In this document: positions 13,671 through 23,148 of the stretch, piece by piece
How the letters are laid out: each line of letters opens with the position of its first letter
Numbering within the stretch: position 1 is the first letter of the stretch
IMG/VR virus record: IMGVR_UViG_3300031992_000080
Span: 1-64,000 of that record
DNA from: a virus
Taxonomy: Duplodnaviria; Caudoviricetes
Reading direction: 5' to 3' (one strand)
DNA: 64,000 nucleotides
Made by a program: the position numbers and the translations under genes
Notes under the pieces: model-generated
What the model was told of the DNA's origin: nothing
What the model saw: the letters and a program-made list of their open reading frames with translations, nothing else
Database searches by the model: none

Positions 13671-14129
13671 CTACTTGTTGTTCACGACGATCACGACGGG
13701 CTTGCCGTCCGCCTTGATCTCGCCGTCGGCGGCGGGCGCCTCCTCGGGCTCGTCATCCTCGGCGGGCGCTTTCGGGTCTTCCTTCGGCGCGGGCTGTTCG
13801 TCCTCGCCATTCTCGGCGTCCTTCGCCGCGTCCTTCGTCACGACATCCGCGAGATCGCCGATGATCTCCCGGAGAAGCTTCCTCATCAGGGAGAAGCGCA
13901 GCTTGTCTAGTGCATCCTTCCTGGCGGTCTTCCCCGTTTCGACAACCCTCTTGATGTTGTCCGTGTCGAGCAGATCGACGCTCTTGTCTCCGAGGTAGGC
14001 GAGGATTGCCGCCACCTCTTCTGCCGTGGCGTCATCGAAGTTGTCCGACTTTGCGGAGAATTCAAAGGCGATTCCCTCTTTGCCGTCCTTCTTGAGGGGC
14101 TTGGCGGTGGTTTCGATGATGAGTTTCAT
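13671..14129 (-). CDS. Hypothetical protein with acidic tail
   Basis: 152-aa ORF. Confidence 0.7.
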   Translation of the reverse strand: MKLIIETTAKPLKKDGKEGIAFEFSAKSDNFDDATAEEVAAILAYLGDKSVDLLDTDNIKRVVETGKTARKDALDKLRFSLMRKLLREIIGDLADVVTKDAAKDAENGEDEQPAPKEDPKAPAEDDEPEEAPAADGEIKADGKPVVIVVNNK

Positions 14130-14284
14130 GGTGTGATTGTGATTTGGTTTTGTGGTTTGTGTTTCCTGGTGGAAATGGTTGACTGGTTGTTCTCGCAGGT
14201 GGTAGGATGCGGCGGGTGTGTTCCACCTTGTTGGAACGATTAAGTGCGAGCCGACTCCCCTTCGGAGGTCGCTCGCGCTAGTGG

Positions 14285-14443
14285 TTATTCATCTGCTCCG
14301 CGTGTGGTGTTCTCGTGGGTGTGTTCCACCTTGTCTGCAAGAAAAAGGAGAGCAAGGTCCGACGCAGAAATCTCCGTGATGTCGGACTCTCTCGCAAGCG
14401 CATCAAGAGCCCATTCCGGCATGTCGATGACGAGGTCTTCCAT
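14285..14443 (-). CDS. Small hypothetical protein
   Basis: Start MEDLVIDM after GGAGG-like RBS. Confidence 0.55.
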   Translation of the reverse strand: MEDLVIDMPEWALDALARESDITEISASDLALLFLADKVEHTHENTTRGADE

Positions 14444-17083: not shown

Positions 17084-17383
17084 TTATGACGGCGATCCGT
17101 GGAGCGGGTCTGGGCCGCTGATCTTCCGCTTGAATCCATCCCATGCTCTTTTGGCAAGCTCAGGCATGGCTTGTTGCAGGTCGGTGAAACGGACTGTGAT
17201 CGTCGGCCTACCTCCTTTGAAGTAGAGATAGACCGTCGCATCTTGCGGCCTCACCCAACAGCTCTCCGACACCTCCGGCCAACCAATCTCGTCCGGCTCT
17301 ATGTCAACTTCCGTCCCTGGTTCGTCATGCGAGAAAAGCCCAAGTTGCCCGTGCCATGTGCGGATGATTGATTTGATTTTCAT
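17084..17383 (-). CDS. Hypothetical protein
   Basis: Start MKIKSII after GGAGG. Confidence 0.65.
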   Translation of the reverse strand: MKIKSIIRTWHGQLGLFSHDEPGTEVDIEPDEIGWPEVSESCWVRPQDATVYLYFKGGRPTITVRFTDLQQAMPELAKRAWDGFKRKISGPDPLHGSPS

Positions 17384-17385
17384 GG

Positions 17386-17697
17386 TTAGTCCTCCTTGTT
17401 GTTGTTGTTGTTGTTCGTATTGAAGTTGTTGTTCGTCTGGAATTGGACATGACAATCGGCCAGTCTTTTCGTGAATAATCTCATTCGTTCTTCCGTTTCT
17501 CGTTCTCCGCACATGGAACGGACGATCATTCTGTTTCTCGGTTCTGCCGCATCCTCTCTCTGAATGGGAGCGAAATCCGCTTCCCATAGGTCTGCCGCAG
17601 AAGTCCCGACGAACATTTCGTCAAAGATTTCTCCGGCCTGTCTGAACGCAGGATCGTCACGGAAATCAAACGTCATTGTGGTTGTTGTCTTGCTCAT
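17386..17697 (-). CDS. Hypothetical protein with poly-Asn tail
   Basis: ORF; the AAC repeats also precede the next RBS. Confidence 0.6.
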   Translation of the reverse strand: MSKTTTTMTFDFRDDPAFRQAGEIFDEMFVGTSAADLWEADFAPIQREDAAEPRNRMIVRSMCGERETEERMRLFTKRLADCHVQFQTNNNFNTNNNNNNKED

Positions 17698-19105: not shown

Positions 19106-19525
19106 TTATTCGGCGGCTCGCTTGCCGAGTTCAAATCCGGCGGCTTCCCCGCGCGCGTCTTTCCACCGCCCGACAACCTCCGCGAGTTCGTCCTTGTTGG
19201 TGACGAGTTCGCCCCAGAAGTAGACGCGGCTTGCGCTTGCGTTCGCTTCAATGTTGAGCGCGTCAAAGTAGGCTACGCGGTCGGGACTGTCCAGATTGTA
19301 TGGGTCAAGCCCCGCTTCCTCTGCGACCTTGTAGGCGGCATTGAGCGCGAGATCGTTAAAGAGCGCGTTGCCGACGGCATCGTAAGGCGGCGGGAATTCC
19401 TCTAGTTTCTCCGCGACGAGATCGGGCGTAATGTCCCCGCCCCATGCGCGCGCCCATTCATCAAGCGCGGCGGTGTCCTCACGCCCCAAGCCGAGGGCGA
19501 GACTGATTGCGGTTTTCGTGTCCAT
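19106..19525 (-). CDS. Acidic hypothetical protein
   Basis: AAGGAG RBS; D/E-rich. Confidence 0.7.
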   Translation of the reverse strand: MDTKTAISLALGLGREDTAALDEWARAWGGDITPDLVAEKLEEFPPPYDAVGNALFNDLALNAAYKVAEEAGLDPYNLDSPDRVAYFDALNIEANASASRVYFWGELVTNKDELAEVVGRWKDARGEAAGFELGKRAAE

Positions 19526-19580
19526 TGTTCTTCTCCTTGTTGTTCTGCCGCGCGGGATGTTGGCGGCGTTTGTTGTTGTT

Positions 19581-19643
19581 GACTTCCCGCGACACGCCCC
19601 TGCGTGTTTCGGCGCGTAGTCGGCGCGCCATCATCGGGCGGGA
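19581..19643 (-). ncRNA. Hammerhead ribozyme, type I topology, variant core
   Basis: 5'-UCCCGC CCGAUGA U GGCGCG CCGACUA CGCGCC GAA ACACGC AGGG GCGUGU C GCGGGA AGUC; three 6-bp helices, GUC site at 19591/19590, loop II GACU complementary to 3' AGUC. Confidence 0.8.
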
Positions 19644-19658
19644 GGGGCGTATCGTGTG

Positions 19659-21176
19659 CTAGGCGGCAAGGCTCCTTTCCAGTTGCTTGCGGTGTTTGCG
19701 GAACAGTTCGGCAAGTCTCTGCGCAACTTCGCGCGCGTCTGCGGGCGGCGTTGTGTTCTTTCGGGCGTAGCATTGCTTCACCTTCCATCCGTCCCCGATC
19801 TCAATGTCCACTCGCCCTTCGTCCTTGCCAGCAAGGGCGAGACACACGCAGTTTTGCGCGGCCATGTTCGCGGAGTAGGATCCGCCGCCAATGCAGTTGC
19901 CCATGTTGTTTCCTTCGCGCAAGAATTCATCCTGCGAGGTGAGCCAGACGATCTGCCAGTCTCCGAGATTGAGCTTATTTTCGTTCTTCTGGACAAGCGC
20001 GCGAAGCTTCTCCACGAATTCCGCGATCAGCGCGTCCCGCTCCGCTTGCGTCCGCGCGTAGATTGCGCGTTGCTTTTCAAGCTCCTTCTCCCTGCGCGCG
20101 TTCGCACGCGCCCATTCGCGCTCCCGCCGCCGCATTTCGCGCATCTGCTTCTTGTGGCGAATGCGTTCCGCTTTCTTGCGCGCTTCGTAGAACGCGGCGA
20201 AGTCGGTCGGGTAGGCGGTGCAACGGGCGCGCAGGTCAAGCCCTTCAAGCTTCGCGTTCGTCATGGCTTCGCAATAGCGCCCCGCGTCAATGCCGTGCTT
20301 CACGCAGTAGGCGTAGGCGGCGCGGATCGGGATTTCGGTCGGGCGAGACTGCCGGACGGCGGAGAAGAACACGCGCGGCGCGTTCCTTGCGCGTTCGCGC
20401 TCCTCCACATCCGCAAGGGTGCGCTTCCCGCTCCGGCTCATCCACACTAGATCGTTCCAGTTGTAGCGCGTGGCGAGTCCGGGATTCTGGATCAGCAGTT
20501 TCATCAGCACCTTGTTGCGGGCGAGTTCCGCACATTTCTTCGGGTTGCGGACGGGAGAAAAGCGGTAGGCGTTGAAGAGTCCGGCCTTGACAAGAAGCTC
20601 GGTCTTCGGGTCTTTGGCGTAGGCGTAGAGGATTTCCGCCAGTTGCTTTGCGTAGTTCGGGCAGTAGTTAGGCCAATGCTCCGTTGCGAGGAGCGCGGGA
20701 TCATCTGCCGCAAGCGGCTTCCACCCGCAGTAGCGGTAGCGGGAGCGGGCGAGGAGGTCTGCGCGGGCGAGGCAGTCGGACGGCAAGGCCATCGTCACGC
20801 CGTTCCAATCAAACCAGTTGTCCTCATCATCTTCGCGCCACGCCTGGTGGCAATAGTAGCCGGAGCAAGTCTGGTAGATGTTGTGCTTCGTGTTGTAGGC
20901 AACATTCCAGTCCACACACCAACCCGCAATCCCCTTCCAGTTGAGATCGTGGATGTAGATTCTGCCCTTCGCCGGGTTGAATTCGGCAATGGGCTTGACC
21001 TCCTTCTCTCCCCTGCGGCTTGCGACCGTGACGAGTTCCAGTCCGTCACGCCCCACCTTGCGGAAAAGGGTTGTGAAGATCGTTGTCCTGCTTTTGTCGG
21101 GAATCTTGACTTTCTCCCGATATTCGCGCGCCGCTTTCGTGACGGCGCGCAGTTCGGTCTTGTTGAGTTTCTTCAT
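19659..21176 (-). CDS. pcfJ: PcfJ-like protein
   Basis: C-terminal WLTSQDEFLREGNNMGNCIGG.Y...IEI...W.V.Q...R.N; paired with PcfK. Confidence 0.85.
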   Translation of the reverse strand: MKKLNKTELRAVTKAAREYREKVKIPDKSRTTIFTTLFRKVGRDGLELVTVASRRGEKEVKPIAEFNPAKGRIYIHDLNWKGIAGWCVDWNVAYNTKHNIYQTCSGYYCHQAWREDDEDNWFDWNGVTMALPSDCLARADLLARSRYRYCGWKPLAADDPALLATEHWPNYCPNYAKQLAEILYAYAKDPKTELLVKAGLFNAYRFSPVRNPKKCAELARNKVLMKLLIQNPGLATRYNWNDLVWMSRSGKRTLADVEERERARNAPRVFFSAVRQSRPTEIPIRAAYAYCVKHGIDAGRYCEAMTNAKLEGLDLRARCTAYPTDFAAFYEARKKAERIRHKKQMREMRRREREWARANARREKELEKQRAIYARTQAERDALIAEFVEKLRALVQKNENKLNLGDWQIVWLTSQDEFLREGNNMGNCIGGGSYSANMAAQNCVCLALAGKDEGRVDIEIGDGWKVKQCYARKNTTPPADAREVAQRLAELFRKHRKQLERSLAA

Positions 21177-21186
21177 GTCGCACCTC

Positions 21187-22188
21187 CTAGAAATCAAAGA
21201 GGGTCATCTGCGGGTCGGGCTTCTTCGGCGCGGGCTTCGGGATCACGGGCGGTTTGTAGTTGCCGGACGGCGGTGTGTAGGGCTTGGGCTTCGGCGTCGG
21301 CTTCCACTCGCAGTTGAGAGAGTCCTCCTCAAAGTAGTGCATGAGTTCGCAGAAAACATCCTCGTCCTCCGCGAAGTATCCGCGCGCGCCCTTCTCGGCT
21401 TTTTTCTGCGCCCATTCGTAGAGGTGATTCGCCGCGCCTTGCAGTGTTTTCTTTCCCTCTATCTTCGCGCGGAGTTCTGGGCTTGCGTTCTTGTCAAAGT
21501 AGGCTTTCAGCCGCTCTTCCATGTGGTTCGTGGCTTTCCACTCCCACTTCGGCGGCTTCTCCTCCTCCGGCTTGTCGGCGGGCTTCTCGTCCGTCTTGTC
21601 CTCGCCGTCCTTGTTGTCCTCCGGCTCGGCGGGATCGGGCGGCGTGTTCTCGCCGTCCGGCTTCTCGGCGGTCTTCTCTTCGCCGCCGAAAACGGACGGG
21701 AGGTTTCTCTGCAACGCCGTGTCAAGAGAGATGTCTCCCCGCTCGTCATTGGTCAGCGGACGGATTGCGACTTCGCCGGAGTCAAGGATCGTCACTTTGT
21801 CCTCGCCGTCCGTGCAGTAGTCCCGCTCGTTCTCGTCATCGTAGACTCGCCATCCGTGCGACTCCGCGACCTCCATCCAGTTGCTCGGCGTGTCCCCGCT
21901 CTCGTTGAGCCAGTCCGCAAAATCCTGCAAGGTCTTGATCTCCGGCGCGGTCTTGTTGTCGGTCTGCGGCGCGTTCTGCGCTTCGGGCGCGGGCGCGGTA
22001 TGCTCCGGCTCGGCGGCGGGTTTGGCGGGCGCGGGTTCGTCCGGCTTCTCGTCCGGCTTCGGCGCGTCCGTGGTCTGCGGCGCGGGCTTCATCTGCGCCA
22101 TCATCTGCGAGACTGCGGCGAGTTTCGCCGCCATCTCTTGTTTCATGCGCTCAAGCTCCGCAAGCGCGTTCTGTGCTTCTTCGTTCAT
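21187..22188 (-). CDS. pcfK: PcfK-like (AcrIIA9 family) protein with long N-terminal extension
   Basis: KKTLQGA..HLYEWAQKKA.KG.....DEDVF..LMHYFEED...QMTLFDF. Confidence 0.8.
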   Translation of the reverse strand: MNEEAQNALAELERMKQEMAAKLAAVSQMMAQMKPAPQTTDAPKPDEKPDEPAPAKPAAEPEHTAPAPEAQNAPQTDNKTAPEIKTLQDFADWLNESGDTPSNWMEVAESHGWRVYDDENERDYCTDGEDKVTILDSGEVAIRPLTNDERGDISLDTALQRNLPSVFGGEEKTAEKPDGENTPPDPAEPEDNKDGEDKTDEKPADKPEEEKPPKWEWKATNHMEERLKAYFDKNASPELRAKIEGKKTLQGAANHLYEWAQKKAEKGARGYFAEDEDVFCELMHYFEEDSLNCEWKPTPKPKPYTPPSGNYKPPVIPKPAPKKPDPQMTLFDF

Positions 22189-22221
22189 GGGGTTTTGCCC
22201 TTGTTGTTGTTCTTGTTGTGT

Positions 22222-22307
22222 GGCTTGCCATCATCGGCGCGCGGGTTGCCGTCCCTGCGCGGACACGCGCCCCGCCGGAAAGGACGGCGGCGGGGGCGTG
22301 TTTCGGC
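22222..22307 (-). ncRNA. Hammerhead ribozyme, type II topology, same variant core
   Basis: 5'-GCC GAA ACACGC[CCCCGCCG..CGGCGGGG]C GCGUGU C CGCGC A GGG ACGGCAA CCC GCGCG CCGAUGA U GGC; GUC site at 22262/22261; helix II only 3 bp. Confidence 0.65.
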
Positions 22308-22311
22308 TTGT

Positions 22312-23148
22312 CTACTTCGCCGCCCCGCCCTCCTTCTTCTCGCCGTTGTTGCGGATCGCGTCTTGGATCGTCTGCGGCGCGCCCTTCGGCGTGTGCGCGC
22401 CGGAAATGATCTGGAAGATGCCGTCGCGCTCCTCGGTGCGCGTCTCCTCCATCTCCATCAACTCCCCGCCGTTGGCTGTGAGCTTCGCCGCGTCCTCGTC
22501 CCCCATCGTCATGCACTCAACGATGGCGGCGAGACTGGCGCGCGTCCATTGCTCTGCGATTACGCCGACGAGCGCAAGGTCGGGAATGCTCGTTGTCTCG
22601 CCATCCGCGTTGTGTCCGGCGAACACCGCCGCGCCCGCAATCAGCCGTTCGCGTCCGGCGTTGAGGAAAAGCGCAGTTCCGGCGGGGTTGACTCCAGAAA
22701 CATCCCAGAATGCGTCCGCAATCCACATATCGCAACCGCGCCCGATGTCAACGCGATCAATCATCGCGCCGATATGTCCGCGCAAGTGTTCGTAGGTCTG
22801 CCCGCGCGAGACTGCCCACAACTCCAAGCGCGTCTCCGCGTCTCCGTCCTTGTTCTCCGTGAACGGAAACGCGGTGAGGAGCAGGGCTTTCTCGTTGTCT
22901 TCCGTCCGCAGGGGATGCCCCTGCGCGAAAGTCCATGCGATTGCGGTCTTGAAAAAGTCCTTGCCGACAAGCCGCGCTTGGATTGCGCGGCAACGCGGAT
23001 CGTGCGCGTCCGGGTTTTGAAGAATTTCGGAGGTGTAGATTTCGCGCCGGAGCAAGCGCGGCGCGTTGTTGTTGTTGTTTTTCATGGCGTTTTGCCTTTC
23101 GGGGTTGGGGTTTCGTGAAAATGGTGGGATTGCGGTATTGCGGCACAT
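22312..23148 (-). CDS. DUF3846-like protein
   Basis: HLRGHIGAMIDRVDI....DMWI......VNPAGT.L......IAG.AVF.GHNADGETTSIPD. Confidence 0.6.
   Translation of the reverse strand: MCRNTAIPPFSRNPNPERQNAMKNNNNNAPRLLRREIYTSEILQNPDAHDPRCRAIQARLVGKDFFKTAIAWTFAQGHPLRTEDNEKALLLTAFPFTENKDGDAETRLELWAVSRGQTYEHLRGHIGAMIDRVDIGRGCDMWIADAFWDVSGVNPAGTALFLNAGRERLIAGAAVFAGHNADGETTSIPDLALVGVIAEQWTRASLAAIVECMTMGDEDAAKLTANGGELMEMEETRTEERDGIFQIISGAHTPKGAPQTIQDAIRNNGEKKEGGAAK

Follow-up and report, generated by a model that had tools for sequence, protein, structure and literature searches.

A Predicted Type II Hammerhead Ribozyme with a Variant Core Upstream of a PcfK-like Gene in a Phage Operon

Introduction

Between two leftward genes of a gut phage lies a short spacer in which the parts of a hammerhead ribozyme can be read in circularly permuted order, with two departures from the textbook catalytic core. 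The questions raised by this locus are whether the spacer encodes a self-cleaving RNA, what the departures in its core mean, and what a cut at this position would do to the messages on either side. The element belongs to a 76-kb phage genome, rated complete by IMG/VR and recovered from sheep-gut metagenomes; the term window denotes here the whole 64,000-nucleotide stretch of this genome that was analysed. The reading that is most probably correct, to judge from sequence, fold and comparison with related phages, is that of a type II hammerhead, predicted to be self-cleaving and stabilised by a pseudoknot, located in a 123-nt spacer of a leftward early operon.

Genomic Context and Architecture of the Element

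The best sigma-70-like site on the minus strand is found at 26985-26957 and the strongest terminator-like hairpin at 16339-16304, and the long open reading frames (ORFs) taken as genes run leftward between 26985 and 16304. A single early transcript across this region is plausible from these sequence signals. The genes of the operon include those for AAA_5, DUF7192, and PcfJ-like proteins. On mobile elements, genes such as these PcfK/PcfJ-like and DUF3846-like ones are found next to anti-restriction genes. The features that concern the spacer and its neighbors are the following, listed in the direction of transcription.

22312-23148, minus strand: upstream gene of 278 aa, weakly DUF3846-like (ORF; Pfam DUF3846 E = 0.0015, below the cut-off)
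22305-22307, minus strand: helix II 5' strand GCC, pairing with GGC at 22229-22227 (MFE fold; pair probability 0.69)
22302-22304, minus strand: core G12-A13-A14 (GAA), invariant in the 103 aligned family members and in three orthologues
22263-22301, minus strand: helix III hairpin of 39 nt (sequence, MFE fold, family covariation at pairs 3-6)
22262, minus strand: C17 (from its position in the motif), with the predicted scissile bond at 22262/22261
22238-22261, minus strand: helix I hairpin of 24 nt (fold and family pair counts)
22248-22250, minus strand: GGC of loop I, pseudoknot partner of the 3' tail (loop/tail covariation across the family)
22231-22237, minus strand: core CCGAUGA, C3-C4-G5-A6-U7-G8-A9 (sequence)
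22230, minus strand: extra U after A9 (sequence)
22227-22229, minus strand: helix II 3' strand GGC (sequence, MFE fold)
22222-22226, minus strand: 3' tail AAGCC, of which GCC at 22224-22222 pairs with loop I
22186-22221, minus strand: CA-rich leader, Shine-Dalgarno-like AAGGG and start codon ATG at 22188-22186 (sequence)
21187-22188, minus strand: downstream gene of 333 aa, PcfK-like in its C-terminal part (Pfam PcfK E = 0.0027, below the cut-off)
19659-21197, minus strand: PcfJ-like gene with uncertain start codon (Pfam PF14284, 47.3 bits), syntenic in the related contigs L416 and L417
19585-19643, minus strand: type I hammerhead with a C4 and extra-U core (descriptor scan; loop II/3'-tail pseudoknot)

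The upstream gene ends with a TAG at 22314-22312 and has a syntenic counterpart in L416 and L417, and distant homologues of the PcfK-like protein carry PF14058. Read through on the minus strand from 22307 to 22222, the sequence contains all parts of a type II hammerhead, beginning 4 nt past the upstream TAG and ending 33 nt ahead of the next ATG. Helices I and III are capped and helix II is open, so that the type II call made in the preliminary description agrees with both the fold and the descriptor scan, and each of the elements it had listed was found in place on checking the sequence. Helix III consists of 6 bp closed by the A15.1-U16.1 pair, a bulged C on its 3' arm, 8 bp more (the extension already described), and a 10-nt loop. 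Helix II has 3 bp, GCC with GGC, as had been reported. Helix I comprises 5 bp, a bulged A, 3 bp, and a 7-nt loop, and the GGC in this loop forms with the GCC of the tail a 3-bp pseudoknot. This is the typical tertiary contact of type II hammerheads, by which helices I and II are aligned, and the preliminary description overlooked it in this copy.

The unconstrained minimum free energy (MFE) and centroid folds of a 101-nt stretch reproduce exactly the three-way junction of the hammerhead, with pair probabilities of 0.6-1.0 in all three helices. The core bases C3, G5, A6, G8, A9, G12, A13, and A14, the A15.1-U16.1 pair, and H17 are all present, and the predicted cleavage triplet is GUC. Two positions deviate from the textbook core: C occupies position 4 (22236), where the consensus CUGANGA has U, and the extra U at 22230 stands between A9 and helix II, which A9 normally abuts.

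CA-rich AACAACAA leaders recur before start codons of the operon (17356-17411, 22189-22221, and 19526-19584, all on the minus strand), one of them with a weak CrcZ-like Rfam match of 15.3 bits; such leaders may enhance translation as unstructured RNA or contain Hfq/Crc-type binding motifs.

Detection by Covariance Models and Descriptors

At gathering thresholds, a search of the window with the Rfam models gave no match. With relaxed thresholds, Hammerhead_II (RF02276) was the top family and was matched over the full length of the model, with 23.4 bits against a cut-off of 37; the Infernal search that had been suggested thus names the expected family and leaves the site below its gathering threshold. 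The low score is ascribed to C4, the extra U, the long helix III, and the bulged A. A dedicated covariance model (R1), built from 15 copies of other phages with the window sequence excluded, scored 53.2 bits on the site with filters off (E about 1e-10) and 65.1 bits with default filters, the runner-up in the 64-kb window reaching 14.6 bits.

A loose hammerhead descriptor applied to the 76-kb genome yielded two matches, namely the type II element and the type I copy at 19585-19643. Shuffled genomes give about 0.5 such matches each, and the bare motif is therefore weak evidence. The fold z-score of the type II element is -1.5. No terminator-like site was found at the element on either strand, and the reading as a terminator was dropped. 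A search for Twister ribozymes gave none in the window.

A Family of Related Hammerheads in Other Phages

IMG/VR was scanned for an exact pattern made up of the 5' core strand, the GUC triplet, and the C4/extra-U strand, with the helices left free. The type II order was encountered at 114 loci (87 unique sequences), the type I permutation of the same strings at 70 loci. Helix III and helix I can each be formed with 4 bp or more in 77 of the 87 unique type II matches, and the remaining ones look like chance hits within coding sequence. Conservation of the core in these 77 matches is partly built in, since the pattern fixed those bases, and the helices were left free to vary. When pairs were counted outward from the junction, a procedure that needs no alignment, positions 3-6 of helix III and 1-4 of helix I were paired in 96-100% of cases, each of them with four to six pair types. 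The loop of helix I and the 3' tail change together as well, GACC occurring with GGUC and GCCC with GGGC.

In an alignment of 103 copies fitted to R1, 96.5% of the cells are paired versus 68% after shuffling and about 35% after sliding, the covariation score amounts to 0.629 versus 0.154 for shuffled data, and both sides change in 18 of 21 pairs, including all four pairs of the pseudoknot. An alignment fitted to R1 leans toward the R1 structure; the junction-anchored count, which lacks this bias, agrees with it. In a MAFFT alignment, the 3' strand of helix I fell into two registers, and this alignment was left unused for pair counts. The covariation in related phages that had been named as a check on the element is thus strong for helices I and III and for the pseudoknot. 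Position 17 is C in 99 and A in 4 of the 103 aligned members.

The placement of the family is also regular. In 40 of 56 scorable cases, a stop codon either lies 0-4 nt before the ribozyme or overlaps it by 1 nt, and the next start codon typically follows 21-43 nt past the ribozyme (here 38 nt past helix II). Among 20 sampled loci with the same core, 7 hold a C4 and extra-U copy at or above the Rfam cut-off, with scores of 37.0-47.2 bits (e.g. L051 with 47.2, L027 with 41.5, and L015 with 41.0), which places the subfamily inside RF02276. When seven proteins of the operon were compared by tblastn with all ribozyme-bearing loci, just two matches, both to AAA_5, were obtained; the ribozyme family is hence not tied to these operon genes.

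Several loci carry more than one copy. Six type II hammerheads are packed into about 4 kb of L055 (5279-9407), four occur in L079 and three in L092, and some single loci, such as L007 and L051, contain both C4 and U4 cores. In L029, a Twister-P5 ribozyme (14229-14294, minus strand; 53.5 bits, above the cut-off) lies in the same operon as a C4 and extra-U hammerhead (13900-13968), about 260 nt from it. Bovine-gut contigs (runs X3 and X5) match solely the 43 nt of 22207-22249, with 7 differences and unrelated flanks. These 43 nt encompass the 3' half of helix I, the core strand, the tail, and the leader, and the bovine contigs probably carry here the 3' half of a hammerhead related to this one, in another phage.

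Orthologues at the Same Gene Junction

Close relatives of the PcfK-like protein are 54-85% identical to it. Three of the contigs that encode them (L416, L417, and L418, with 72%, 73%, and 54% identity, respectively) were compared, and they had been picked by this protein, not by the RNA. Gene order is kept where the contigs are long enough, and a hammerhead is present upstream of the PcfK-like gene in all three, with R1 scores of 74.1, 40.4, and 32.8 bits. The copy in L416 is nearly identical to that of the window and has the C4 and extra-U core, with a perfect 8-bp helix I that lacks the bulged A. In L417, helix III is shortened and rearranged, helix I is different, and the core has C4 without the extra U. 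The helices of L418 are different again, and its core is the canonical U4 form without the extra U. All other core bases are retained in the three contigs. Because the orthologues were found via the protein, this retention speaks without bias for selection acting on the catalytic core, and the compensatory changes at the same junction support the helices.

A search of viral contigs with both flanking proteins gave no related loci. DNA contigs from one run contain a strain that is about 7% diverged in the upstream gene; over the ribozyme it has no difference among those listed, at a depth of about 3.

Natural Variation of the Core

The two deviations from the textbook core are not peculiar to this genome. 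The identical C4 and extra-U core string is shared by the 77 unique well-formed type II copies of IMG/VR, and U4 with the extra U and the same helix II occurs in at least 99 unique copies. Without the extra U, 17 C4 and 107 U4 copies are found among the matches listed. The extra U is present in 100 of the 103 aligned family members. C4 and the extra U thus occur apart, each in many copies, and represent separable and common polymorphisms. De la Pena and Flores reportedly described in 2001 viroid hammerheads in which an additional nucleotide follows A9. Control scans of IMG/VR gave a different picture for other substitutions: A or G at position 4 was met at 12 loci and a mutated G5 at 6 loci, none of which had at least 4 bp in both helices. 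These clean controls indicate that C4 is a specifically tolerated and selected alternative, in line with a motif CYGANGA, and not a sign of decay. This is also the spelling used in a 2026 survey (PMC13481778). A text search of the literature for the exact variant core string gave no relevant paper.

The preliminary description had seen in this locus two permutations of one unusual core and had argued from them for selection rather than chance. The C4 and extra-U core is indeed common to both copies, it is not rare, and the argument for selection holds, both copies belonging to covarying families found in many phages. The odd-looking core is a frequent natural spelling of phage hammerheads: position 4 tolerates C and not a purine, and the additional U behind A9 can be present or absent. 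Orthologues at a single gene junction differ in both features, with C4 and U4 interchanged at this very site between L417 and L418. In another pair of loci, L082 and L262, position 4 (C in one, U in the other) is the sole difference over the whole motif and tail.

The Type I Partner

The second hammerhead of the genome sits just past the stop codon of pcfJ, so that the two ribozymes, one of each permutation, bracket the PcfK-like/PcfJ-like gene pair. It is conserved in both L416 and L417. In the three phages the entire spacer that follows pcfJ, with the type I motif and the leader of the next gene (window 19518-19668, minus strand; L416:6256-6406; L417:6187-6338), is 98% identical, compared with only 72-73% for the PcfK-like proteins. 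Its few changes include a C-G pair gained by helix III through compensatory insertion and a U to C exchange at N7, and in the orthologues the extra U is placed one position deeper in helix II. A search of the whole genome with Rfam Hammerhead_1 leaves the type I partner undetected. The unconstrained MFE fold of the region 19575-19660 (minus strand) is not a hammerhead (-36.2 kcal/mol, z = -2.55); the competing fold is a long hairpin in which upstream sequence pairs with the helix III loop region.

Proposed Mechanism and Alternative Explanations

In the proposed mechanism, the polycistronic RNA would be transcribed, the three helices would fold round the core, and the RNA would cut itself 3' of C22262. 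The upstream DUF3846-like message would then have the long hairpin of helix III at its 3' end, terminated by a 2',3'-cyclic phosphate. The downstream message would begin with a 5'-OH, followed by the helix I hairpin, the unstructured CA-rich leader, and the start codon of the PcfK-like gene. With a second cut, made by the type I hammerhead that follows pcfJ, a discrete PcfK-PcfJ transcript would be set free, its stability and translation no longer coupled to those of its neighbors. A role of this kind, the production of separate messages, has been proposed for phage hammerheads and never proven (PMC3088659; PMC6765202). The type II copy may cut slowly, a prediction based on its 3-bp pseudoknot, the bulged A in helix I, and the 3-bp helix II.

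Three other readings of the type II element have to be weighed against self-cleavage. That it resembles a hammerhead by chance, or is a GC-rich intergenic hairpin or terminator, is extremely improbable. The frequency of descriptor matches in shuffled genomes and the modest fold z-score are what such a reading can draw upon; it is effectively refuted by the score of the family model, the covariation of the family, and the orthologous hammerheads with their compensatory changes, and the element is devoid of a terminator-like site. A more serious candidate, still unlikely, is an RNA of hammerhead shape whose C4 and extra U leave it with negligible cleavage and which serves as a structural spacer, whose hairpins would protect the RNA, give a nuclease its entry site, or insulate translation between the cistrons. 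The tertiary contact is weak here with its 3 bp, the Rfam score is below the threshold, and the U4C exchange is reported to lower considerably the activity of a viroid hammerhead in vitro, although, in the passage of PMC3088659 that cites Ambros and Flores (1998), the much less active variant is described as sufficient in vivo. Against a non-catalytic spacer stands the fact that the orthologues found by protein keep G5, A6, G8, A9, G12-A14, and C17, which a structural RNA need not do. The same holds for the ratio of 77 well-formed copies with C4 to none with a purine at position 4 or a mutated G5, and for the C4/U4 swaps in the otherwise identical ribozymes of L082 and L262 and between L417 and L418 at this junction.

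The remaining reading concerns regulation. The preliminary description had pointed out that CCGUCC in loop III is complementary to GGACGG in helix I and might provide an alternative fold, and a conditional ribozyme can be imagined in which the apex of helix III, in contact with loop I, keeps the RNA from being cut until the contact is resolved. The complement is real and even longer than described, spanning 7 nt of Watson-Crick pairs between loop III and helix I/loop I instead of 6; it is the longest among the 77 family members, the others having at most 5 nt, and it is kept in the nearly identical L416. It is lost in L417 and L418, however, and 7% of shuffled loops reach a complement of at least 6 nt. 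The nested alternative, when forced, has -32.8 kcal/mol versus -43.3 kcal/mol for the hammerhead fold, a cost of about 10 kcal/mol, so that the alternative fold is energetically disfavored; it is also specific to this copy and its near-identical counterpart in L416. In addition, the bases of loop I are already explained as the conserved pseudoknot module of the family. The complement is treated as fortuitous, though it might serve as a kissing contact, and a conditional ribozyme of this type is very improbable, if less so than a chance resemblance.

Self-cleavage by a type II hammerhead is thus retained as the preferred reading. A more speculative extension of it, unlikely at present, would regard C4, with or without the extra U, as the mark of a phage hammerhead subclass that is kinetically tuned or conditional on ions or pH and that times the release of the PcfK-PcfJ message. 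The analogy here is with the A6C hammerhead variant, which prefers Mn2+ (PMC7151607). If this were true, cutting would be slow or conditional, possibly reinforced in this copy by the loop III/loop I complement, and simple constitutive processing would be the wrong picture.

Comparison with Known Systems

The practical consequence of the detection scores is that phage hammerheads are under-counted, since the Rfam threshold misses this ribozyme and about half of the copies sampled that share its core. Moreover, the PcfK/PcfJ-like gene pair between two hammerheads offers a tractable case for studying the purpose of hammerheads in bacteria and phages.

The closest known relatives are the type II hammerheads of RF02276 (Perreault et al., 2011, PMC3088659). 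With these the present element shares the topology, the short and open helix II, the core bases, the GUC triplet, the position of the pseudoknot, and the phage intergenic setting. It differs in having C4 for U4, the extra U between A9 and helix II, a helix III of 39 nt, and a bulged A in helix I. For type II hammerheads with a loop I/3'-tail pseudoknot, and for prophage hammerheads that flank single genes, cleavage has been demonstrated in vitro and in vivo (PMC3088659). The triple array round ardA in Agrobacterium tumefaciens (PMC3088659) resembles the locus in that mixed permutations bracket a short block of genes and each ribozyme starts right past a stop codon; other genes are flanked there, and activity is experimental in that case and predicted in the present one.

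Both deviations from the textbook core have their counterparts in viroids, as U4C and as an extra nucleotide after A9. The viroid variants are rare single cases in plant RNA replicons, whereas the versions in DNA phages are frequent and separable. Twister ribozymes of similar phage operons have another fold and another catalytic core. Small self-cleaving ribozymes are known to occur together in phage intergenic spacers, and the Twister-P5 close to a C4 hammerhead of L029 agrees with this. Perreault et al. (2011) had already described the class, its pseudoknot, its occurrence in phages, and the arrangement around genes, and the known picture of phage hammerheads is unchanged by the present locus.
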